Below, one piece after another: positions 9,880 through 21,676 of a stretch of DNA of 32,000 bases; position 1 is the stretch's first letter; the number at the start of each line of letters is the position of its first letter. The DNA is from Nostoc sp. Lineage in GTDB: Bacteria > Cyanobacteriota > Cyanobacteriia > Cyanobacteriales > Nostocaceae. Location of the stretch: positions 16,022 to 48,021 of the forward strand of contig NZ_JBALFV010000125.1 in NCBI RefSeq assembly GCF_036916735.1. The letters are read 5' to 3'. Both the position numbers and the translations under genes were made by a program. The notes under the pieces were generated by a model that had not been told where the DNA came from, did no database searches, and saw only the letters and a list, made by a program, of their open reading frames with translations.

Positions 9880-11853
9880 TTATACACTTTCCCGCAATTT
9901 ATCTAACACGCTTCTATCTTCTAATGTCGAAGTATCCCCAGATACCTCTTGCCCTGCGGCTAGATTCCGCAGCAAGCGCCGCATAATCTTACCTGATCGC
10001 GTTTTGGGCAAAGCGTCTGTAAAGCGGATTTCTCCCGGACGCGCGATCGCACCGATTTCTTTGACAACGTGCAGCTTGAGTTCTTTACTCAGTTCCTCAT
10101 TTGCCTGATAAGTACCTTCTAAAGTCACAAAAGCAACTACTTCTTCACCCTTAAGTTCATCGGGTTTACCTACTACCGCCGCTTCTGCAACTGCTGGATG
10201 CGAAACTAAAGCTGATTCTACTTCCATTGTACCAAGTCGGTGTCCTGATACATTAAGTACATCATCAACACGACCCATTACCCAGAAATAGCCGTCTTCA
10301 TCTTGTCTTGCACCATCACCAGCAAAGTAAATATAGTTACCATCTTTAGGAGGAATGTGTTCCCAGTAAGTGCGGCGGAAGCGTTCTGGATCGGCGTAGA
10401 CTGTCCGCATCATTCCTGGCCACGGATGACGCACTGCTAGATAACCGCCTTCTTTATTGGGTACAGTGTTTCCTTCTAAATCCACGACATCTGCAATAAT
10501 TCCAGGGAAGGGAAGAGTTGCTGAACCGGGTTTAGTGGGAATTGCCCCTGGTAGCGGTGTAATCATGATACCGCCGGTTTCCGTTTGCCACCAGGTATCC
10601 ACAATTGGACAGCGATCGCCACCAATTACTTTGTGATACCATATCCAAGCTTCCGGGTTAATCGGTTCGCCAACGGTTCCCAACAAACGCAACGAAGATA
10701 GATTTCGCGTGTTGGGATGTTGTTCGCCCATCTTAATAAATGCCCGAATTGCCGTAGGTGCAGTATAAAAAATATTAACACCGTATTTTTCAATCACATC
10801 CCATGTACAACCAGGATTAGAAGCGCGGGGCGCACCTTCATACATCACACTGGTTGCACCGTTGGAAAGGGGGCCGTAGACAATGTAGCTGTGTCCCGTA
10901 ATCCAACCTACATCTGCGGTACACCAATATACATCTGTGTCTTGCAGGTCGAATATCCACTTGGTGGTCATGTGGGTATACAAATTATAACCAGCAGTTG
11001 TATGCACTACGCCCTTCGGTTTGCCCGTGCTGCCAGAAGTGTAGAGAACAAACAGCATATCTTCGCTGTCCATTGGTTCGGCGGGACAATCTGCTGATAC
11101 TCCTTTTTGCAAATCATGCCACCAATGATCGCGTCCGCCTGACTGCATATAAGTTTCTTGTCCAGTGCGCTTGACAACTAGGACATTTTCTACACTGGGA
11201 ACAGCACCATCAGCTAAAGCTTTGTCTACCTGTTCCTTGAGAGGAACGATCGCATCTTTGCGCCAACCACCATCAGCCGTGATTACCAGTTTAGCTTGAG
11301 CATCAATTAAGCGATCGCGCAAAGCTTCGGCACTAAAACCACCAAATACCACACTGTGGGGTGCGCCAATTCTGGCACAGGCTAACATAGCGATCGCAGC
11401 TTCCGGAATCATCGGCATATAAATACCAACGCGATCGCCTTTTTGTACACCCAGTTGCTTCAATACATTGGCAAACTGACAAACTTCTCGGTGCAGTTGG
11501 GAATATGTCAGGGTACGGGAATCACCTGGTTCTCCTTCCCAAATCAAAGCTGCTTTATTTTTACGCCAGGTAGTGAGATGTCTGTCAAGGCAGTTGTAAG
11601 AAATATTAATCTTACCACCAACGAACCATTTAGCAAAAGGCGGTTGCCAGTCTAATACTGTATCCCATTTTTGGAACCATTCTAATTCTGTTGTCGCCAA
11701 ATCTGCCCAAAATTGCTGCGGATCGGCTTTGGCTTTGTCGTAGATACGCTGATAGTCATCTAAGCTTTGGATATGGGCGTTCTGCGAGAATTCTGAGCTA
11801 GGATGAAACAGCCGCTTCTCTTGTAGGATTGATTCTATAGTTGGTTGAGACAT
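9880..11853 (-). CDS. acs: Acetyl-coenzyme A synthetase (AMP-forming)
   Basis: 657 aa. Canonical Acs motifs are present: [54 protein letters not shown] and [12 protein letters not shown]. Confidence 0.97.
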
Positions 11854-12083: not shown

Positions 12084-12728
12084 ATGACGCTCACCGTCGA
12101 AGCTAGCAGCCTATCTCTCAACGATGTTCATCGGTTTCTCAAACTAGAAGAACTTTCCAATGGTTCATTCACAGACTTTTTAAGTCTAGAACCACTCTTT
12201 GAGTTTGAACAGCAGGATTTATTACGAATCAGAAACGACTTCCGTCGTTATTTAAGCGCAGGTAAAATTTCTGAAGGGTTGGTTAAATTTATAACAATTG
12301 CACCATTAATGCGATTAGCTGGATTTTACGATGTGCCGATTCGGTTGACAATGGAAGATAGCATTGCGATCGCAGTTGAAGATGAAGACAGAAGAATTAC
12401 TGGACGGATGGATATTTTAGCAATAAATAATCCTCAAAGTAATATTGCGCCGCCATTTTTGGTTCTAGTAATTGAAACGAAAAATAGTTCGGTCAATGTG
12501 ATTGAGGGTTTACCTCAATTAATCACTTATGCTTTTAAAAGTTTAGAGCAACAACCATCAGTTTGGGGTTTGGTAACTAATGGACAGCTTTATCAATTTG
12601 TTTATCTAAGACATGACAATCGGTCAACTTATGAGTTAATGCCATTATTAAATTTGAGTCAATCTCCAGATGCAATTGAGTTATTGCAAGTTTTCAAAGC
12701 CATTTGTAAGTTACCAAATTTTCAGTAA
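12084..12728 (+). CDS. Restriction-endonuclease-like protein (type I restriction enzyme HsdR N-terminal-like PD-(D/E)xK domain, standalone)
   Basis: 214 aa. GRMDILAI...LVLVIETKNS...GLPQLITYA...GLVTNGQLYQFVYL fits the D...(E)xK...Q...Y...TNG pattern of HSDR_N-type domains. Confidence 0.6.
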   Translation: MTLTVEASSLSLNDVHRFLKLEELSNGSFTDFLSLEPLFEFEQQDLLRIRNDFRRYLSAGKISEGLVKFITIAPLMRLAGFYDVPIRLTMEDSIAIAVEDEDRRITGRMDILAINNPQSNIAPPFLVLVIETKNSSVNVIEGLPQLITYAFKSLEQQPSVWGLVTNGQLYQFVYLRHDNRSTYELMPLLNLSQSPDAIELLQVFKAICKLPNFQ

Positions 12729-12750: not shown

Positions 12751-13479
12751 ATGTCTGATCCTGCTACTTTAGAAATCATCTCTGATGGTATTTCAGAAGA
12801 CGAAGTTATTTTTCCTCCTGGCGATATACTGAGTGACGAACCACCTTTGGAAAGTGACCTGCACCGTGACCAAATCGATTTGCTGATTCGCATCCTCAAA
12901 TTATGGTGGCGAGATAGGCAAGATTTTTATGCTTCTGGCAATTTGACGATTTACTACAGTTTTAACCAGAAAAAATCAGAATATTTCCGCGGCCCAGACT
13001 TTCTTGTAGTTTTGGGAACCCAGAAAAAAGACCCTAAAAGTTGGGTAGTTTGGCAAGAAGACGGCAAATATCCTAACCTGATTGTGGAAATTTTGTCAAG
13101 TTCAACGACAGCAGTTGATAAAGGTTTAAAAAAACAAGTTTACCAAGATACCTTCCGTACACCAGATTATTTCTGGTTTGATCCTGTAACAATGGAACTT
13201 CAGGGATTTCATTTAGTTGATGGGAAGTATCAAGAAATTCAATCAACCACTGATGGACGTTTGTGGAGTCAACAGTTAGAACTTTATTTGGGAGTTTATG
13301 AAGGTAAATTAAGATTCTTCACTACTGAAAATCAATTAATACTATCATCAGAGGAATTGGTTGAACAAGAACGTTTACGTGCCGAACAGGCAGAAGAACG
13401 CGCCGAACGAGCAGAGCAAGAAATTGCTCGACTGCGGGAGGCTTTACGTTTACAGGGCATCGACCTAGAGAATATTTGA
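12751..13479 (+). CDS. Uma2 family endonuclease (DUF820) with C-terminal coiled-coil tail
   Basis: 242 aa. ESDLHRDQIDLL..., GPDFLVVLG, YPNLIVEILSSSTTAVDKGLKKQVYQD..TPDYFWFDP are the characteristic Uma2 (PF05685) motifs. The C-terminus EQERLRAEQAEERAERAEQEIARLREAL is typical of cyanobacterial members. Confidence 0.85.
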   Translation: MSDPATLEIISDGISEDEVIFPPGDILSDEPPLESDLHRDQIDLLIRILKLWWRDRQDFYASGNLTIYYSFNQKKSEYFRGPDFLVVLGTQKKDPKSWVVWQEDGKYPNLIVEILSSSTTAVDKGLKKQVYQDTFRTPDYFWFDPVTMELQGFHLVDGKYQEIQSTTDGRLWSQQLELYLGVYEGKLRFFTTENQLILSSEELVEQERLRAEQAEERAERAEQEIARLREALRLQGIDLENI

Positions 13480-14876: not shown

Positions 14877-15128
14877 TTAATAATCTTTGAGATGTGCAAT
14901 CTTTATCACTGTTAGTAGTAAGGGTTGCTCCTGAATCTGGTAAATAATGCGGTATTTACCCAAACGAACCTTATACAAGCGTTCGGTGTCCTTCAATAAG
15001 TGAGCGGCTTCTGGACGTGGATTTAATGCTAGTTCCTCTAACTTTTGTGCTAATTGTTGCTGCATTACTGAGTCTAATTCTGTAAGTTTTTGAACAGATG
15101 AAGGTGTCAATGCTACTTGGTAGCTCAT
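14877..15128 (-). CDS. Type II toxin-antitoxin system RelE/ParE family toxin
   Basis: 83 aa. ...LYKVRLGKYRIIYQIQEQPLLLTVIKIAHLKDY is the characteristic C-terminal core of PF05016-type toxins. Its start overlaps the upstream antitoxin stop by 4 nt (ATGA). Confidence 0.85.
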   Translation of the reverse strand: MSYQVALTPSSVQKLTELDSVMQQQLAQKLEELALNPRPEAAHLLKDTERLYKVRLGKYRIIYQIQEQPLLLTVIKIAHLKDY

Positions 15129-15394
15129 ATCCCTAACTCCCTTTTAATTTCTTCAAAGGGTGTTGTCCCCAGCCCTGCAATTTCCTCTAATACTATATAA
15201 GCATCTCTTACATCAGCCTCATCTAACCTTGCTTCAATCAGCTCATGCATCTGCTCTGTTGAGGTAATTTCAGTTCCTGGCTCTTCTCTAAGTTTGTCCG
15301 TTAATGCATGAAAAGCTTCTTGATCGTCTCGATGTTCCAACACATAAGCTCTTAACTCTTGTCTGGTCATTGCTTGAAAATTTGCCTTAGTCAT
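15125..15394 (-). CDS. Putative cognate antitoxin (two-part: N-terminal MT.QELRAYVLEHRDDQEAF module plus C-terminal acidic toxin-binding-like tail)
   Basis: 89 aa. Position immediately upstream of, and translationally coupled to, the RelE/ParE toxin. The acidic C-terminal segment DEADVRDAYIVLEEIAG...FEEIKRELGI resembles antitoxin partners of cyanobacterial RelE/ParE toxins. Confidence 0.65.
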   Translation of the reverse strand: MTKANFQAMTRQELRAYVLEHRDDQEAFHALTDKLREEPGTEITSTEQMHELIEARLDEADVRDAYIVLEEIAGLGTTPFEEIKRELGI

Positions 15395-15689: not shown

Positions 15690-16026
15690 ACATTTAAGCA
15701 TTTCTTGCAAATGTTAAAGCAAGAGTTACTCAGGTTGAAGCATGTATAAGAAAGGCTTAAGTTTTTCTGAAAAGATTAAATACTTTCTTATAAATGTTGA
15801 AGCAAGAGTTACTCAGGTTGAAGCATGTATAAGAAAGATTTAAGTATTTCTTACAAAGATTAAATACTTTCTTATAAATGTTGAAGCAAGAGTTACTCAG
15901 GTTGAAGCATGTATAAGAAAGGTTTAAGTATTTCTAACAAAGATTAAATATTTTCTTATAAATGTTGAAGCAATAGTTACTCAGGTTGAAACTTTGGTTA
16001 ATAACGTTGAAAGTTTTTTGTTAAAG
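15690..16026. repeat. Tandem array of about four copies of an 84-bp unit built from four 21-bp sub-units (21-bp phasing)
   Basis: GTT(G/A)AAG starts at 15713, 15734, 15796, 15817, 15880, 15901, 15964, 15985 and 16006 (spacings 21, 62, 21, 63, 21, 63, 21, 21). Unit 15796-15879 = gttgaagcaagagttactcag | gttgaagcatgtataagaaag | atttaagtatttcttacaaag | attaaatactttcttataaat. It ends about 110 nt upstream of the 16136 ORF. Confidence 0.9.
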
Positions 16027-16135
16027 GGTACACCCGACTTTCACCAGGGAAACTGGTTAGCCTCTATCTCTCTTCCATGTAAACATCTGTTATTGTATGC
16101 ATCAGTTAGGATGTTGCCAGATAAGGTAGGATATT

Positions 16136-16552
16136 TTGGAAGCAATTACAGCTAGTGCGATCGCAACCCTCGTTTTTAACAAAGCATTTGAGACAACTAT
16201 CGAGAAATTCACTGAAGCAGCCCTGGTTAAAATTGCTGAGTTGCGAAAGAAGATTTGGGAGAAGTTAAAAGGAAATTCTCAAGCCGCAACTGCCTTCGTT
16301 GAGGCTGACAAAGGCTCGAAACCAGATGTAGACAAGGTTGCTGCTTACTTGCAGAGAATTTTACGTGACGAACCGGAGTTTGCTAAAGAAGTACAAACAC
16401 TGGCTCGTGAAATTCAGGCTGGTAAGATAGTAGACAATAGCAATATGACTCAAATCAACCATGACAATGCCAAAGGATGGCAAACTAAAGTTGAGGGTGG
16501 AACAGTTTATCAAGGCGAGATTAACATTCATCATGCACCCCCCAATTCTTGA
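16136..16552 (+). CDS. Small helical effector-like protein (Bell-domain-like) with C-terminal amyloid-signalling-type motif shared with the downstream NLR
   Basis: 138 aa with a TTG start preceded by AAGGTAGGA. The N-terminus is hydrophobic/helical (MEAITASAIATLVFNKAFETTIEKF...). C-terminal residues 107-132, INHDNAKGWQTKVEGGTVYQGEINIH, repeat at the N-terminus of the next ORF. The stop lies 11 nt before the next start. Confidence 0.7.
   Translation: MEAITASAIATLVFNKAFETTIEKFTEAALVKIAELRKKIWEKLKGNSQAATAFVEADKGSKPDVDKVAAYLQRILRDEPEFAKEVQTLAREIQAGKIVDNSNMTQINHDNAKGWQTKVEGGTVYQGEINIHHAPPNS
16454..16531 (+). other. C-terminal copy of the shared ~26-aa motif (candidate bacterial amyloid signalling sequence)
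   Basis: INHDNAKGWQTKVEGGTVYQGEINIH versus SNQDNAKGWQTQVEGGTAYVGDISIY in the next gene: 18 of 26 positions identical by my count. Confidence 0.7.
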
Positions 16553-16563
16553 ATTGAGCCATC

Positions 16564-19500
16564 ATGAACCAAAGCAACCAGGATAATGCCAAGGGATGGC
16601 AAACTCAGGTTGAGGGTGGAACAGCTTATGTCGGCGATATTAGTATCTACAATTCCCCTACTAGGCAGTTACACTCATCTCCTCCAAATAATATTCCTTA
16701 TCGGGGTGTCGCCAACTTTGTCGGGCGGGATGAGAAACTTGCCCAAGTGCATGAAAAGTTGCTGCAAAACGACAACGCAGCAATTTTGGCTGTGACTGGT
16801 ATGGGGGGAATCGGTAAAACTGAACTGGCGACACAATACGCACAGCGCTACAAAGTCAATTATCCTGGTGGGCTTTGCTGGTTAGATGCCAGAAAACTAG
16901 ATTTAGCAGCAGAGATTGTCGAGTTTGCTAAGTTTTACATGAAACTGGAAGTACCGCAAACCTTATTGACTTCCCAGGAACAAGCAAAATGGTGCTGGCA
17001 TAATTGGCAACCACAAACAGGACTAGTCTTGGTAGTATTGGACAATGTTGACGATGTAACTAACTGGAAAAATTCTCACCAAGTACTGCCAACAGATAAC
17101 CGCTTTCGTATATTGATGACAACTCGGTTGCGAAATCTCGGTTCAACAGTTCAACAGATAACTTTGGATGAACTCTCATCAAACGATGCTTTGAAATTGT
17201 TGACAGCTTTGTTGGGTGAGAATGATCGGCGAGTGCAACGGGAACCACAAACGGCAGCAAATTTATGTAAATGGCTGGGATATCTGCCTTTAGGTTTGCA
17301 ATTAGTCGGCGCGTATTTGGCAGAAGATCCAAATTTGTCTTTGACAGAGATTTTACAGCGATTGCCAGCCCAGCAACAATCTCAATTGGAAGCCGTATTT
17401 GAATTAAGCTGGCAACAACTCGATTATATGACAAAGTATGTCGGTGAGTTGTTGAGTTTATTTGCCTCAGATATGATTCCTTGGCAAATAGTTGAATCTG
17501 TCAGTCAGCAGCTAAATTGGGCAAAGGCAGATGTTGACGAGGCGAGAAAGCAACTTTATCAGCGTCATTTAATTCAAAGCGTAGCAGAAAGAGAAAGTTG
17601 CTATAAAATTCATCCTTTAATTAGGGAGTTTTTGCAGGGGAAATTAGTAGGGTTAAACACAGCCGATGACCTCAAAAAAGCCTTTGCCGCAGCATTAGTA
17701 GAAATTGCTCAGAAAATACCTGAATCTCTCACCCTTGAGGATATCAAATCAGTGCAGCTGGCAATTCCACACTTGACTGAGGTGGCACAAAATCTGATTG
17801 ATGTTGTGGAGGATGAAAATTTATTTTGGGTTTTCACTGGCTTGGGCAGATTTTATCAAGGACAGGGTTTGTATACCCTAGCAGCACCTTGGTATGAGCA
17901 AGGATTATCAACGGTGCAAACCCGTTTGGGAGAGGAACATCGCCATGTTGCCACCAGCCTGAACAACCTGGCATTACTCTACAATTCTCAAGGACGCTAC
18001 GACCAAGCCGAACCCCTGTTTCTGCAAGCTTTAGAACTGAGAAAACGCCTGCTGGGAGATGCACATCCCGATGTTGCCGCCAGCCTGAACAACCTGGCAT
18101 TACTCTACAATTCTCAAGGACGCTACGACCAAGCCGAACCCCTGTTTCTGCAAGCTTTAGAACTGAGTAAACGCCTGCTGGGAGAGGAACATCGCCATGT
18201 TGCCACCAGCCTGAACAACCTGGCATCACTCTACAATTCTCAAGGACGCTACGACCAAGCCGAACCCCTGTTTCTGCAAGCTTTAGAACTGAGAAAACGC
18301 CTGCTGGGAGATGCACATCCCGATGTTGCCGCCAGCCTGAACAACCTGGCAAATCTCTACGATTTTCAAGGACGCTACGACCAAGCCGAACCCCTGTTTC
18401 TGCAAGCTTTAGAACTTTATAAACGCCTGCTGGGAGAAGCACATCCCGATGTTGCCACCAGCCTGAACTTGCTGGCAAATCTCTACAATTCTCAAGGACG
18501 CTACGACCAAGCCGAACCCCTGTTGCTGCAAGCTTTAGAACTTTATAAACGCCTGCTGGGAGATGCACATCCCGATGTTGCCGCCAGCCTGAACAACCTG
18601 GCAAATCTCTACGATTTTCAAGGACGCTACGACCAAGCCGAACCCCTGTTTCTGCAAGCTTTAGAACTTTATAAACGCCTGCTGGGAGAAGCACATCCCG
18701 ATGTTGCCACCAGCCTGAACTTGCTGGCAAATCTCTACAATTCTCAAGGACGCTACGACCAAGCCGAACCCCTGTTGCTGCAAGCTTTAGAACTGAGTAA
18801 ACGCCTGCTGGGAGAAGAAAATCCCTCAGTTGCCACCAGCCTGAACAACCTGGCATCACTCTACTATTCTCAAGGACGCTACGACCAAGCCGAACCCCTG
18901 TTTCTGCAAGCTTTAGAACTTTATAAACGCCTGCTGGGAGAAGCACATCCCCATGTTGCCACCAGCCTGAGCAACCTGGCAAATCTCTACAATTCTCAAG
19001 GACGCTACGACCAAGCCGAACCCCTGTATCTGCAAGCTTTAGAACTTTATAAACGCCTGCTGGGAGAAGAACATCCCGATTTTGCCATCAGCCTGAACAA
19101 CCTGGCATTACTCTACAATTCTCAAGGACGCTACGACCAAGCCGAACCCCTGTATCTGCAAGCTTTAGAACTGAGTAAACGCCTGCTGGGAGAAGCACAT
19201 CCCCATGTTGCCAGCAGCCTGAACAACTTGGCATTACTCTACGATTCTCAAGGACGCTACGACCAAGCCGAACCCCTGTTACTGCAAGCTTTAGAACTGA
19301 GAAAACGCCTGCTGGGAGAAGCACATCCCGATTTTGCCACTAGCCTGAACAACCTGGCATTACTCTACAATTCTCAAGGACGCTACGACCAAGCTGAACC
19401 CCTGTATCTGCAAGCTTTAGAACTTAATAAACGCCTGCTGGGAGATGCACATCCCGATTTTGCCACCAGCCTGAACAACCTGGCATTACTCTACAAATCT

Positions 19501-19827
19501 CAAGGACGCTACGACCAAGCCGAACCCCTGTATCTGCAAGCTTTAGAACTGAGTAAACGCCTGCTGGGAGAAGCACATCCCTCTGTTGCCACCAGCCTGA
19601 ACAACCTGGCATTACTCTACGATTCTCAAGGACGCTACGACCAAGCCGAACCCCTGTTTCTGCAAGCTTTAGAAATTCGTCAGCAGGTGTTTGGGGTGAA
19701 TCATCCCAATACGGTTACTGTTCGGCAAAATCTGGAAAATCTTCAAGCTCAAAAGAGTGCTAACCGTAAAGTTAAAAATAATACTAATAATTCCTTGTGG
19801 AAGAAGTTTTTAGGGTTATTTGAGTGA
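16564..19827 (+). CDS. NLR-like STAND NTPase: N-terminal ~30-aa signalling motif + NB-ARC domain + 14 near-identical 42-aa TPR repeats
   Basis: 1087 aa. NB-ARC motifs: P-loop GMGGIGKT (aa 79-86, nt 16798-16821), Walker B LVLVVLDNVDD (aa 154-164), RILMTTR (aa 182-188), GLPL-type LPLGLQLVG (aa 241-249). The C-terminal half is TPR_10/TPR_12-type (kinesin-light-chain-like) repeats. No enzymatic N-terminal effector domain; only the short motif is present. Confidence 0.9.
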   Translation: MNQSNQDNAKGWQTQVEGGTAYVGDISIYNSPTRQLHSSPPNNIPYRGVANFVGRDEKLAQVHEKLLQNDNAAILAVTGMGGIGKTELATQYAQRYKVNYPGGLCWLDARKLDLAAEIVEFAKFYMKLEVPQTLLTSQEQAKWCWHNWQPQTGLVLVVLDNVDDVTNWKNSHQVLPTDNRFRILMTTRLRNLGSTVQQITLDELSSNDALKLLTALLGENDRRVQREPQTAANLCKWLGYLPLGLQLVGAYLAEDPNLSLTEILQRLPAQQQSQLEAVFELSWQQLDYMTKYVGELLSLFASDMIPWQIVESVSQQLNWAKADVDEARKQLYQRHLIQSVAERESCYKIHPLIREFLQGKLVGLNTADDLKKAFAAALVEIAQKIPESLTLEDIKSVQLAIPHLTEVAQNLIDVVEDENLFWVFTGLGRFYQGQGLYTLAAPWYEQGLSTVQTRLGEEHRHVATSLNNLALLYNSQGRYDQAEPLFLQALELRKRLLGDAHPDVAASLNNLALLYNSQGRYDQAEPLFLQALELSKRLLGEEHRHVATSLNNLASLYNSQGRYDQAEPLFLQALELRKRLLGDAHPDVAASLNNLANLYDFQGRYDQAEPLFLQALELYKRLLGEAHPDVATSLNLLANLYNSQGRYDQAEPLLLQALELYKRLLGDAHPDVAASLNNLANLYDFQGRYDQAEPLFLQALELYKRLLGEAHPDVATSLNLLANLYNSQGRYDQAEPLLLQALELSKRLLGEENPSVATSLNNLASLYYSQGRYDQAEPLFLQALELYKRLLGEAHPHVATSLSNLANLYNSQGRYDQAEPLYLQALELYKRLLGEEHPDFAISLNNLALLYNSQGRYDQAEPLYLQALELSKRLLGEAHPHVASSLNNLALLYDSQGRYDQAEPLLLQALELRKRLLGEAHPDFATSLNNLALLYNSQGRYDQAEPLYLQALELNKRLLGDAHPDFATSLNNLALLYKSQGRYDQAEPLYLQALELSKRLLGEAHPSVATSLNNLALLYDSQGRYDQAEPLFLQALEIRQQVFGVNHPNTVTVRQNLENLQAQKSANRKVKNNTNNSLWKKFLGLFE
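16573..16650 (+). other. N-terminal copy of the shared ~26-aa motif on the NLR
   Basis: SNQDNAKGWQTQVEGGTAYVGDISIY (aa 4-29), matching the C-terminus of the upstream ORF. Confidence 0.7.
17926..19689 (+). repeat. Fourteen tandem 126-bp (42-aa) coding repeats, near-identical at nucleotide level
   Basis: Consensus LGEAHPDVATSLNNLALLYNSQGRYDQAEPLFLQALELxKRL. The first unit starts at L455 (nt 17926) and the 14th ends at nt 19689. Includes a perfect ~248-bp tandem duplicate (18295-18542 = 18547-18794). Confidence 0.95.
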
Positions 19828-20197: not shown

Positions 20198-20368
20198 CAA
20201 GAAATATTCATAAATTATGACGATATTTTTGTTCTCATATTTTAATTCTAAATACCAAATAACGACAGCAGAAAAGTAATTGTAGCTACAAATAAATACT
20301 TTTTACTTTTAATTTATTTTTGATTTAGGGTATTTACAAGTATAAAAATATACTTTAATATATAAATA

Positions 20369-20841: not shown

Positions 20842-21135
20842 TTAATCAGAGAATAGCGCCTCTAAATCGCGGTAGTCACTTACTATCCGCACAACTTCAA
20901 TCCCCTCTGCAATTTGGCGATAAAATATCAAATAATCATCAACTGGAAAGCTTCGTAACGCAGGTAAAAGTTCATCCCGTCTGCGTCCCATACTAGGAAA
21001 CTGTGCTAAAGTATCCAACTTTTGAGTGATGATTGTGAATAATCTATCTGCAATATCTGGATTTCCAGCAAATAGGTAATCGTTAATTTATTGTAAGTCT
21101 TCGGTAGCTTGAAGCGATAGAAAATATAAACTCAT
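20842..21135 (-). pseudogene. parE: ParE family toxin gene inactivated by a premature TAA at codon 16
   Basis: Minus-strand translation: MSLYFLSLQATEDLQ*INDYLFAGNPDIADRLFTIITQKLDTLAQFPSMGRRRDELLPALRSFPVDDYLIFYRQIAEGIEVVRIVSDYRDLEALFSD*. The stop is at 21088-21090. The ATG overlaps the parD stop (TAATG). 294 nt = 98 codons in a single frame. Confidence 0.8.
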
Positions 21136-21404
21136 TATTGTGCCTGAGTCTTTCTCAAAGCTTGGTTCTTTTGACGCAGTTGCTCGATTACTTCTTTACC
21201 GTCGAGTCGTTCTTGGCGATCAAGTTGCTCAACCCCAATCATAATTTCTCTTTGCAGTTCCTCAAACCGACCCTTGTAAATACGTTCCCGTTCCTCCAAC
21301 AGCCTAACACCTGCAAGAATCACTTCCTCTGATGAGGTGTACTTACCGCTTACAACTTGACTTTGAATGAACTGCTCAAGCTCGGTAGTTAAGGAAATAT
21401 TCAT
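21135..21404 (-). CDS. parD: ParD-type (ribbon-helix-helix) type II antitoxin
   Basis: 89 aa. MNISLTTELEQFIQSQVVSGKYTSSEEVILAGVRLLEERE is the characteristic ParD/CC2985-family N-terminus. Located immediately upstream of the parE remnant. Confidence 0.85.
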   Translation of the reverse strand: MNISLTTELEQFIQSQVVSGKYTSSEEVILAGVRLLEERERIYKGRFEELQREIMIGVEQLDRQERLDGKEVIEQLRQKNQALRKTQAQ

Positions 21405-21676
21405 AAACTATTACCATATTTTTGTTCTCATATTCTAATTTTAGATGCGAACTGACAGCAGTCCATTGCGATCGCCTGAAGCTAAATGTTAAAACTTTTG
21501 GTGTATTGACTTATACGCAAATTACCCCACTTGCAGGGCGATCGCATCCATTCAACCCTCTTCAAAATCCACCACAACCACGTTAAGCTGGATCAGAGTG
21601 GCAATTTATTGCGCTTTTTAATATGAAAATCTCTGTTCTTGTCAAAATTTAATTTTTTCTGCTTGAGAACACCGGA

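Follow-up and report, generated by a model that had tools for sequence, protein, structure and literature searches.

The window analysed here, a 32,000-nt stretch of a Nostoc sp. contig (NZ_JBALFV010000125.1, positions 16,022 to 48,021), carries two co-directional genes on its plus strand. ORF list and homologue comparison indicated ORF1 (16136-16552; 138 aa) to encode a Bell-domain effector with a C-terminal BASS9 motif, and ORF list and Pfam indicated ORF2 (16564-19827; 1087 aa) to encode an NLR-type receptor. The arrangement is as a preliminary description, made from the letters alone, had given it, down to the intergenic gap of 11 nt (16553-16563). Direct sequence reading placed a Shine-Dalgarno-like AAGGTAGGA (16123-16131, +) 4 nt upstream of the TTG start codon of ORF1, and an NCBI product of equal length (138 aa) and with the same start is listed as 'hypothetical protein V7L20_32080 [Nostoc sp.]'. 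The frame of ORF2 is open only from 16557, and ORF2 therefore lacks any start further upstream. Given the 11-nt gap, the two genes are probably co-transcribed; a scan for consensus promoters and terminators returned sites no more numerous than in shuffled sequence.

The globular Bell domain, as delimited by AlphaFold2, hydropathy and the N-termini of homologues, spans residues 1-100 of ORF1 (16136-16435, +) and begins with a hydrophobic first helix that starts MEAITASAIATLVF. Residues 1-13 average 1.57 on the Kyte-Doolittle hydropathy scale and the predicted helices begin at residue 6, in line with the hydrophobic, helical N-terminal region read earlier. Structure prediction of the 138-aa protein, proposed in the preliminary description as a check, yielded five main helices forming a bundle, with a kink in the first, followed by a disordered tail (59-sequence alignment; pLDDT 88.1 and pTM 0.79 for the domain; helices at residues 6-13, 15-18, 27-44, 48-58, 62-78 and 80-95). 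The hydrophobic first helix is predicted to be surrounded by the other four, and the tail, with pLDDT below 40 in the monomer model, has no predicted fixed structure.

ORF1 aligns over its full length with a Calothrix PCC 6303 protein (61% identity, E=4e-48) whose motif and residue numbering agree with the listed Bell-side entry AFZ02241.1 (Dyrka 2020 Table S2), and all of its 164 homologues are cyanobacterial where the source name gives the organism. Its N-terminus, MEAIT, compares with a family consensus of MEP[LI]T, derived from the N-termini of 166 representative clusters, and resembles the conserved 'MEPIS' region, an N-terminal region in which mutations abolished (Bab G11K) or affected (Avast2) defence. 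ORF1 bears the hallmarks of the family (a length of ~138 aa, an acidic second residue, a first helix that is hydrophobic, a helical bundle and a disordered tail), and its sequence places it in the Bell family. The same type of domain is fused straight to NB-ARC-TPR in other proteins (P0258, P0180), an all-in-one form that Dyrka et al. reported for Bell domains. ORF1 had no match in the PADLOC defence library. A Foldseek search with the Bell model returned no resembling solved structure, including HeLo, MLKL and Bab (best E=1.8), so that kinship of Bell to known pore-forming domains is drawn only from the N-terminal sequence signature.

ORF2 comprises, in order, the BASS9 motif, a 23-residue linker, an NB-ARC domain, a helical region, 14 TPR units and a 47-residue tail. 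The profile searches suggested in the preliminary description placed the NB-ARC ATPase domain (Pfam PF00931, E=3.3e-20) at residues 56-267 (16729-17364, +), and every string quoted there was found on the plus strand: the P-loop GMGGIGKT (residues 79-86; 16798-16821), the Walker B motif LVLVVLDNVDD (154-164; 17023-17055), RILMTTR (182-188; 17107-17127) and LPLGLQLVG (241-249; 17284-17310). The NB-ARC part also matches the sequences of solved AfsR (2.8e-14) and Apaf-1 (4e-4). Since the linker between motif and NB-ARC is just 23 residues long, ORF2 has no other N-terminal effector domain, as had been proposed. We classify ORF2 as a STAND NTPase of the NB-ARC/TPR type, and a second copy of the motif makes up its first 32 residues.

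The TPR units, each of 42 aa, occupy residues 453-1040 (17920-19683, +), with Pfam TPR_12 matching 14 stretches (E=3.5e-255) and TRF delimiting the array in the DNA to 17927-19674 (period 126, 13.9 copies, 92% matches). Mean identity between units is 91% for DNA and 84% for protein, with an overall pN/pS of 1.74. Variation is concentrated at about nine positions, the nine most variable columns having a pN of 0.33 and a pS of 0.12, as compared to 0.032 and 0.047 in the remaining columns. Variable columns with pN above pS were discussed as an NLR-repeat trait in Dyrka 2020, and the array is presumed to be the ligand sensor.

The effector-side copy of the shared motif (MTQINHDNAKGWQTKVEGGTVYQGEINIHHAP; ORF1 residues 104-135; 16445-16540, +) lies within the last ~35 residues of ORF1 and was delimited by BLASTP against the ORF2 N-terminus and by the bass_09/nlr_20 entries; the receptor-side copy (MNQSNQDNAKGWQTQVEGGTAYVGDISIYNSP; ORF2 residues 1-32; 16564-16659, +) was delimited by alignment to ORF1 and by its kept position in Nostoc. 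Pairwise BLASTP found 21/32 residues identical and 27/32 positive (E=1e-13), upholding the recurrence of the ORF1 C-terminal motif at the ORF2 N-terminus, and 13 of the 38 residues in the ORF1 tail (101-138) are G, N or Q. The motif class, left unnamed in the preliminary description, is BASS9, a published BASS family: the Bell-side motif of the window (MTQINHDNAKGWQTKVEGGTVYQ) shares 19 of 23 positions with an entry placed in that class by Dyrka et al. 2020. Supplementary Table 2 of that study assigns MTQINQDNAKGWQTKVDGGTAYI (Calothrix PCC 6303 AFZ02241.1/AFZ02242.1) to class bass_09, together with near-identical pairs from Microcystis, Pseudanabaena and Leptolyngbya. The BASS9 motif is predicted to form amyloid.

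At the DNA level, the two copies are identical at 69 of 87 nt, and of the 18 positions with identical amino acids, 15 share the codon too (7.5 expected, P=4e-4). Across 20 loci, the 57-nt motif core holds zero fixed differences between effector and receptor side and 17 polymorphic sites in common. This points to a gene-conversion signature, that is, sequence exchange between the two motif copies. Within the window itself, the copies differ at 11/32 positions, core included (VYQ vs AYV). Column conservation is 0.85-0.94 on the effector side, which is nearly invariant, versus 0.59-0.88 on the receptor side. Covariation of the two copies, which had been put forward as a check, proved weak, as within-pair motif identity in the Nostoc clade was 0.730 versus 0.720 upon shuffling (p=0.10).

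The pair itself is widely kept. The 73 Bell-BASS9 genes come from 72 loci in cyanobacteria; 55 of them are followed by a co-directional gene with detectable NB-ARC, 52 of these partners bear a recognisable motif copy, and several of the remaining Bell-BASS9 genes are partnered with motif-bearing NACHT-HEAT-TIR, NB-ARC or TPR-containing proteins. A motif-bearing STAND NTPase adjoins the Bell gene in about 70 loci across cyanobacteria, where the pairing is conserved. The pair is syntenic in 19 other Nostoc species-level genomes, with the 11-nt gap, the neighbours and the motif position retained; many of these genomes are named as metagenome bins, which we take to be lichen-associated. The 'TA- and nuclease-rich island' of the preliminary description held in part: the window contains two ParE-type loci and one Uma2 gene, and the small toxin-antitoxin genes near the pair vary between strains, but the pair is flanked by housekeeping genes (acs on one side; terC and ndk on the other) and occupies a stable syntenic chromosomal site, not obviously a mobile defence island.

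Upstream of the pair lies a non-coding tandem array (15701-15990, +; TRF period 84, 3.5 copies, 94% matches), the 3′ end of which is ~145 nt 5′ of the Bell gene. Each 84-nt unit consists of four 21-nt sub-repeats whose ends are GTTGAAGCA-like 9-mers. The array contains zero ORFs of at least 40 aa on either strand and has no Rfam match. A like array occupies the same position in ten orthologous loci, including some in which the ParE/DUF6887 region of the window finds no alignment, and may be regarded as a candidate regulatory element of the gene pair.

Taken together, the bass_09 motif, the Bell homology, the NB-ARC/TPR receptor and the conserved pairing bear out the BASS/Bell-type layout proposed at the outset, and we hold with good confidence that ORF1 and ORF2 are the two parts of a chromosomal Bell/NLR amyloid-signalling module of class BASS9 in Nostoc. 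The module type was already catalogued by Dyrka et al. 2020; added here are the gene-conversion signature, the TPR column variation and the upstream array. By analogy to fungal NWD2/HET-S, the BASS1/BASS3 prion assays and E. coli Bab/Agp (BASS11), the variable TPR array would recognise a ligand, upon which NB-ARC would oligomerise in a nucleotide-dependent manner, gathering several N-terminal motifs into a cross-beta nucleus. This nucleus would template the same fold in the Bell tail, and upon conversion the hydrophobic first helix of Bell would leave the sheath of helices around it, enter the membrane and kill the cell. In published work, prion and fibril formation was seen for BASS1 and BASS3, and the Bell-side copy was converted by the NLR-side one. 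Our literature search found no experimental study of BASS9 or of a cyanobacterial pair, matching the earlier statement that trigger, outcome and regulation are 'not established for any cyanobacterial example', and amyloid templating and membrane killing are for this reason inferred by analogy. Later work has demonstrated a biological role of Bell-type amyloid signalling in E. coli, where Bab/Agp acts in abortive infection (10.1101/2024.11.07.622273). Our guess at the most likely role in Nostoc is altruistic death of the infected filament cell.

An amyloid death switch might instead serve a purpose other than antiphage defence, such as developmental or stress death, kin/non-self filament recognition or control of lichen or plant symbiosis, a possibility that we consider real if clearly the less likely one. 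The pair is fixed and syntenic in the 19 other Nostoc genomes (between acs and terC/ndk) rather than patchy mobile cargo, many of these genomes are named as metagenome bins, Bell and NLR genes follow multicellular lineages, and the fungal analogue HET-S/NWD2 works in allorecognition. Against this, the sole tested bacterial Bell-type system mediates abortive infection, the adjoining toxin-antitoxin loci are strain-variable as in defence hotspots, and the TPR variation resembles diversifying recognition.

It is rather improbable that the shared motif is an ordinary stoichiometric docking peptide, engaging for instance by beta-strand pairing, with the NLR oligomer recruiting and clustering Bell and no self-propagating amyloid involved. 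The unstructured ORF1 tail in the monomer model would suit such a peptide, a near-invariant effector motif facing a drifting receptor side looks like a conserved peptide with variable partners, and of the families treated with amyloid-motif grammars in Dyrka et al. 2021, BASS9 was captured worst, at an average precision of 0.42-0.63. Yet the motif matches the tested prion- and fibril-forming BASS families in length, G/N/Q richness and position; the same logic depends on amyloid assembly in Bab/Agp; and the motif partners unrelated receptor classes (NB-ARC-TPR, NACHT-HEAT-TIR), which fits a self-contained homotypic module. That the motif repeat is a by-product of local 87-nt duplication or gene conversion with no signalling, and ORF1 an unrelated small helical protein, would accommodate a DNA direct repeat 119 nt apart with its excess of codon identity, but is strongly disfavoured and very unlikely because of the conservation data, the motif pair being kept across cyanobacterial orders, even at ~45% identity and 150-190 nt from the stop codon, with different receptor classes and with both copies in frame at the extreme termini.

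Read as a BASS9-class amyloid-signalling module, the pair is closest to the BASS9 pairs of Dyrka et al. 2020 (Calothrix sp. PCC 6303 AFZ02241.1/AFZ02242.1; Microcystis aeruginosa PCC 7806 CAO90856.1/CAO90857.1), with which it has in common the motif class, a like Bell effector (61% to Calothrix), an NB-ARC-type receptor and the collinear, close-spaced gene order. The window stems from another species, a Nostoc metagenome-assembled genome. Its receptor motif begins at residue 1, as in Calothrix, whereas it lies at residues 51-73 in Microcystis and Pseudanabaena, and the motif copies are far more alike in its Nostoc clade (73% vs about 45%), where DNA-level exchange is suggested.

Bab/Agp (BASS11; Ibarlosa et al. 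2024 preprint) likewise consists of a small helical effector, whose N-terminal helix is conserved and hydrophobic and whose C-terminus bears an amyloid motif, and a large adjoining TPR-containing partner carrying the same motif N-terminally. It is the only bacterial Bell-type system with a shown role, namely abortive infection that depends on amyloid and is accompanied by membrane alterations. Comparison of ORF1 with Bab gave no match in sequence or fold. The systems differ in receptor (TPR-GreA/B-C-PIN vs NB-ARC-TPR), motif (BASS11 vs BASS9), effector (a shorter 'Babybell' of 109 aa vs 138 aa) and setting (a prophage defence hotspot vs a syntenic chromosomal locus). In fungal NWD2/HET-S (HRAM motif, HeLo domain), an NLR with an N-terminal motif and highly similar repeats is encoded beside a pore-forming effector bearing the motif C-terminally; Bell and HeLo had no detectable sequence or Foldseek similarity, HET-S carries two motif pseudo-repeats where ORF1 has one copy, and the fungal receptor is NACHT/WD rather than NB-ARC/TPR. 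Finally, the all-in-one antiphage STAND NTPases of the 'MEPIS' type (Avast2, bNACHT02/11/23) combine a repeat sensor with an N-terminal helical killing domain of similar N-terminal signature, a likeness extended by the relatives of the ORF1 domain fused to NB-ARC-TPR (P0258). Those are single proteins, whereas in the window effector and sensor are separate and joined by the shared motif alone.

The pair consists of ORF1, encoding a putative Bell effector of 138 aa from a TTG start (16136-16552, + strand), and ORF2, encoding an NB-ARC/TPR receptor of 1087 aa from an ATG start (16564-19827, + strand). Both reading frames, their collinear order and the 11-nt gap between them were exactly as the preliminary description had them. 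A Shine-Dalgarno-like AAGGTAGGA lies upstream of the ORF1 TTG. The same start is called independently in NCBI, where an identical 138-aa product is annotated as a hypothetical protein in a Nostoc sp. metagenome-assembled genome. The ORF2 frame opens just 7 nt ahead of its ATG and hence cannot extend further upstream. We rejected a fusion of the two products by frameshifting or readthrough on the same ground, and because the frames differ and both termini are conserved as termini. Consensus scans were uninformative for promoters (9 promoter-like sites versus 9.6 expected) and for terminators (1 terminator-like site versus 5.4 expected), and Rfam had no match anywhere in the window.

ORF1 matched no model significantly in Pfam, NCBIfam or PADLOC, with sub-threshold noise only (ApoLp-III, E=0.004; GpsB, E=0.02) and no match in the defence library; we therefore tested the features of a Bell protein singly. 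One of its homologues, P0005 of Calothrix sp. PCC 6303 (61% identity over the full length, E=3.9e-48), is identical at residues 104-126 to the sequence that Dyrka et al. 2020 give for AFZ02241.1 on the Bell side (Supplementary Table 2; 10.1101/2020.01.06.895854). The search returned 164 homologues, and all source names giving an organism were cyanobacterial. At 138 aa, ORF1 lies within the Bell size range (about 120-140 aa). Its N-terminus, MEAITASAIATLVF, begins with ME, thus showing the acidic residue at position 2 or 3 typical of Bell proteins, and is hydrophobic (mean hydropathy 1.57 over residues 1-13). The family consensus there, MEP[LI]T, resembles the 'MEPIS' region that is conserved among several antiphage NLRs as well as Bell, Hell and Bab (Ibarlosa et al., 10.1101/2024.11.07.622273). 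Within that region, the G11K mutation in Bab abolishes defence and mutations in Avast2 affect it (10.1101/2024.11.07.622273).

The helical N-terminal region that had been ascribed to the 138-aa protein was recovered by structure prediction: from a 59-sequence alignment, AlphaFold2 confidently modelled residues 1-100 (pLDDT 88, pTM 0.79) as a bundle of five helices at 6-18 (kinked), 27-44, 48-58, 62-78 and 80-95, the last four being longer. The full-length model scored lower overall (pLDDT 68), with the tail from residue 100 below 40, as would be expected of a region without structure in the monomer. Foldseek comparison of the full-length and residues 1-100 models with the PDB gave nothing below E=1.8, and we accordingly do not assert that the fold resembles HeLo, MLKL or Bab; any tie to these proteins would rest on the N-terminal signature and on analogy of architecture. 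When PDB sequences were searched with a profile of the family, only a designed repeat protein was found, via low-complexity matches. The authors of the Bab structure describe very low structural similarity between subfamilies (10.1101/2024.11.07.622273).

An exhaustive search with residues 1-100 yielded 166 representative clusters, most of them proteins of 125-155 aa with similar N-termini and varied G/N/Q-rich tails; a few are fusions, the domain being joined to NB-ARC and TPR in P0258 (957 aa) and to NB-ARC in P0180. This is the modular pattern that Dyrka et al. 2020 describe for Bell domains (10.1101/2020.01.06.895854). The homologous proteins P0179, P0251, P0252 and P0176 carry a Bell-like helical domain fused to GUN4, to a DUF900 alpha/beta hydrolase or to CHAT-TRADD_N-TIR, GUN4 being an unexpected partner for a death domain.

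ORF2 carries an NB-ARC domain at residues 56-267 (PF00931, E=3.3e-20, 72.8 bits against a curated cut-off of 23.5), and the four ATPase strings by which it had been recognized, comprising the P-loop, Walker B and downstream motifs, were all found in its translation; it also matches AfsR and Apaf-1 sequences of solved structures in the PDB. The linker between its N-terminal motif and NB-ARC spans just 23 residues, in line with the proposed lack of an N-terminal effector domain. The count of 14 TPR repeats likewise stood, with 14 units of 42 aa matching TPR_12 and TPR_10. These units form a 126-nt tandem repeat (92% matches) and are on average 84% identical in amino acids and 91% identical in DNA. 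Their differences cluster in about 9 of the 42 columns, where pN (0.33) exceeds pS (0.12; window 17920-19683), while in the remaining columns pN (0.032) is below pS (0.047) and the overall pN/pS is 1.74; the nine columns were selected post hoc, and conversion between units makes the estimate less straightforward. It agrees with the 'highly internally conserved, rapidly diversifying repeats' that Dyrka et al. 2020 discuss in NLRs of fungi and bacteria (10.1101/2020.01.06.895854). Unit number differs among the orthologous receptors of syntenic Nostoc loci, giving lengths between 585 and 1090 aa, a spread that could partly reflect repeat collapse in short-read metagenome assemblies. Minus-strand ORFs within the TPR array (17834-18982, 382 aa, and shorter ones up to 19612) have periodic translations and were discarded as repeat artefacts.

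The proposed sharing of a terminal motif between the two products was confirmed by alignment of ORF1 residues 104-135 with ORF2 residues 1-32 (21/32 identities, E=1e-13); over the aligned motif the two copies are 66-73% identical. Dyrka et al. 2020 (10.1101/2020.01.06.895854, Supplementary Table 2) list a class of bacterial amyloid signalling sequence (BASS), bass_09, with member motif nlr_20 pairs, among them MTQINQDNAKGWQTKVDGGTAYI / MKQENKDNAKGWQTEANNSNVYN from Calothrix PCC 6303 and MIQNNSDNAKGWQTKVEGGTAYI / LVQINKGDAKGFQTLVTGGIANI from Microcystis PCC 7806. The effector-side motif in the window, MTQINHDNAKGWQTKVEGGTVYQ, matches the Calothrix entry at 19 of 23 positions, and since only four differ, the motif is on sequence grounds assigned to BASS9. 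The placements of this motif and of its receptor-side counterpart, MNQSNQDNAKGWQTQVEGGTAYV, fit the definition of the class, namely a Bell C-terminus and an NB-ARC or NACHT N-terminus encoded within 5 kb. As a family, BASS9 is known from sequence analysis alone: the 2020 preprint reports assays of BASS1 and BASS3 (10.1101/2020.01.06.895854), a later paper on amyloid-motif grammar handled BASS9 computationally, and a text search for 'BASS9' returned nothing experimental, tests in the literature searched covering BASS1, BASS3 and BASS11 only.

To assess conservation of the pair, we scanned one genome per prokaryotic species with BASS9-only query sequences, a design that biases the set towards BASS9 carriers; of the 75 loci returned, all those with organism-naming titles were cyanobacterial. 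Fifty-five of 73 Bell-BASS9 genes (72 loci) were followed by a same-strand gene with a detectable NB-ARC, and 52 of these 55 downstream genes had a recognizable N-terminal motif copy. Several other Bell-BASS9 genes were partnered with a motif-bearing NACHT-HEAT-TIR protein, an upstream NB-ARC protein or a TPR-containing protein. The pairing with both NB-ARC and NACHT-HEAT-TIR receptors means that one effector family serves at least two sensor classes. The NACHT-HEAT-TIR receptors, encoded in the loci L047 (6430-10266), L054 (3877-7773) and L041 (3331-7158) of Leptolyngbya-like and other non-heterocystous genomes, measure about 1280 aa and combine a divergent BASS9 copy with NACHT, HEAT and a C-terminal TIR. 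In Anabaena minutissima FACHB-250 (locus L023, 5997-7058), two tandem Bell-BASS9 genes precede one NB-ARC receptor gene.

Nineteen Nostoc genomes retain the pair with an identical 11-nt gap and in the same gene neighbourhood, at 85-93% DNA identity. Acetyl-CoA synthetase (9880-11853) flanks it on one side, and terC, ndk and arginine decarboxylase flank it on the opposite side. The small genes around it vary between genomes. The preliminary description had placed the pair in a TA- and nuclease-rich island. An island of the defence type is a partly apt description, since core genes here enclose what looks like a variable hotspot. The pair itself, however, is as judged by synteny a fixed resident of this Nostoc clade, and 'nuclease-rich' comes down to one Uma2 gene (12751-13479), because the ORFs at 12084, 13572, 14291 and 20442 have no significant Pfam match and are not Uma2 paralogues. 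The first of these, a 214-aa ORF adjoining the Uma2 gene (12084-12728, + strand), may nevertheless encode a PD-(D/E)xK nuclease: it contains GRMDIL ... VIETK, which is D...E-x-K-like, and matches HSDR_N very weakly (E=0.23). As to toxin-antitoxin genes, a ParE-family toxin (83 aa) and a DUF6887 protein (89 aa), overlapping by 4 nt (14877-15394, - strand), probably form such a pair; the alignment to the window spans this region in only some syntenic Nostoc loci. On the other side, a 58-aa ParE remnant matching profile positions 36-85 of 89 (20842-21018, - strand) adjoins an intact ParD antitoxin gene (21135-21404, - strand). Bordered by a 68-nt direct repeat (20201-20268 and 21394-21461, 82% identical), this region looks like a decayed toxin-antitoxin insertion.

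Upstream of ORF1 lies a non-coding tandem array of 3.5 copies of an 84-nt unit (15701-15990, + strand; 94% matches), which ends about 145 nt 5′ of the Bell start codon. Each unit consists of four 21-nt sub-repeats, and it is these sub-repeats that end in a GTTGAAGCA / GTTTAAGTA / GATTAAATA-like 9-mer. Ten orthologous Nostoc loci have a similar array at this position, including some that do not align with the window in the ParE/DUF6887 region, and the motif pattern is almost absent elsewhere in the fetched loci. The array may provide phased protein-binding sites controlling the pair.

Covariation of the two motif copies, whose absence the preliminary description had named as refuting its reading, gave a mixed result: within-pair identity was 0.549 versus 0.509 shuffled across all pairs (p=1e-4, confounded by shared ancestry), 0.445 versus 0.429 across non-Nostoc pairs (p=0.004) and 0.730 versus 0.720 within the Nostoc clade (p=0.10). 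Across orders, the motif is nearly invariant on the effector side but drifts on that of the receptor. The DNA of the Nostoc clade shows a clearer pattern. In the window the copies form a direct repeat (16445-16531 and 16564-16650) with 69 of 87 nt identical and the two motif copies 119 nt apart. They use the same codon at 15 of 18 positions in the window (7.5 expected from codon usage, P=4e-4) and at 292 of 387 across 20 Nostoc loci (164 expected). The haplotypes GTT-TAT-CAA and GCT-TAT-GTC each occur on both the effector and the receptor side; in one locus (L072) the two copies share an identical synonymous ACT, and in another (L010) the effector copy holds the receptor-type QVK. Over a 57-nt motif core of the 20 syntenic Nostoc loci, 17 polymorphic sites are common to the two sides and no fixed difference separates them, and the distance within a locus is lower than after shuffling (7.05 versus 7.75, p=0.03). 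We read this pattern as gene conversion acting between the direct repeats and keeping the copies matched. Since the loci are related and some third-position sharing could also arise by recurrent mutation, we regard it as suggestive rather than proven. A broader proposal, which we hold only tentatively and consider somewhat unlikely as a whole, is that the Nostoc copies are kept compatible by repeated conversion between the 87-nt repeats, without independent compensatory substitutions, and that the locus has its own conserved upstream control element in the phased 21-nt array. If both parts hold, the locus would reveal how a template/substrate amyloid pair retains specificity and would offer an entry point for understanding how a module of such lethality is silenced.

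The preliminary description was right in its interpretation of the gene pair. Work published in 2020 already covered its architecture, motif class and proposed mechanism, with the class already recorded for Nostocaceae, and the locus, which comes from a metagenome-assembled genome rather than a cultured strain, leaves the overall picture unchanged. Its additions are modest: the conversion signature, the pattern of TPR variation and, upstream of ORF1, the conserved 84/21-nt array. It is a clean example with 19 syntenic orthologues for comparison, and could help in picking a strain of Nostoc or Calothrix that grows in culture and can be used for gene knockouts, challenge with cyanophages and seeding with peptides.

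Sequence and structure analysis establishes how the pair is built, which families its parts belong to and how widely it is conserved. By analogy with characterized pairs, we infer that a ligand would trigger oligomerization of ORF2, whose clustered N-termini would nucleate a cross-beta fold; this nucleus would template the ORF1 tail, freeing the hydrophobic first helix of ORF1 to damage the membrane. Prion and fibril assays on BASS1 and BASS3 reported in the 2020 preprint have the Bell side converted by the NLR side (10.1101/2020.01.06.895854), and in the E. coli BASS11 system Bab/Agp, abortive infection is abolished by beta-breaker and helix-1 mutations (10.1101/2024.11.07.622273). As for its role in Nostoc, the module may serve antiphage defence, which we favour, though not strongly, over developmental death or inter-filament recognition. 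In Bab/Agp, the receptor combines TPR, GreA/B-C and PIN with BASS11, whereas the pair in the window combines NB-ARC and TPR with BASS9, and ORF2 had no GreA/B-C or PIN match among the best 25 of 35 Pfam families. The pair would thus work like Bab/Agp, yet is not a member of that system. Fungal NWD2/HET-S offers a further analogy for the proposed mechanism. In bacteria, Bell/NLR amyloid-signalling pairs correspond to HET-S/NWD2 of fungi and to RHIM necroptosis signalling of animals.
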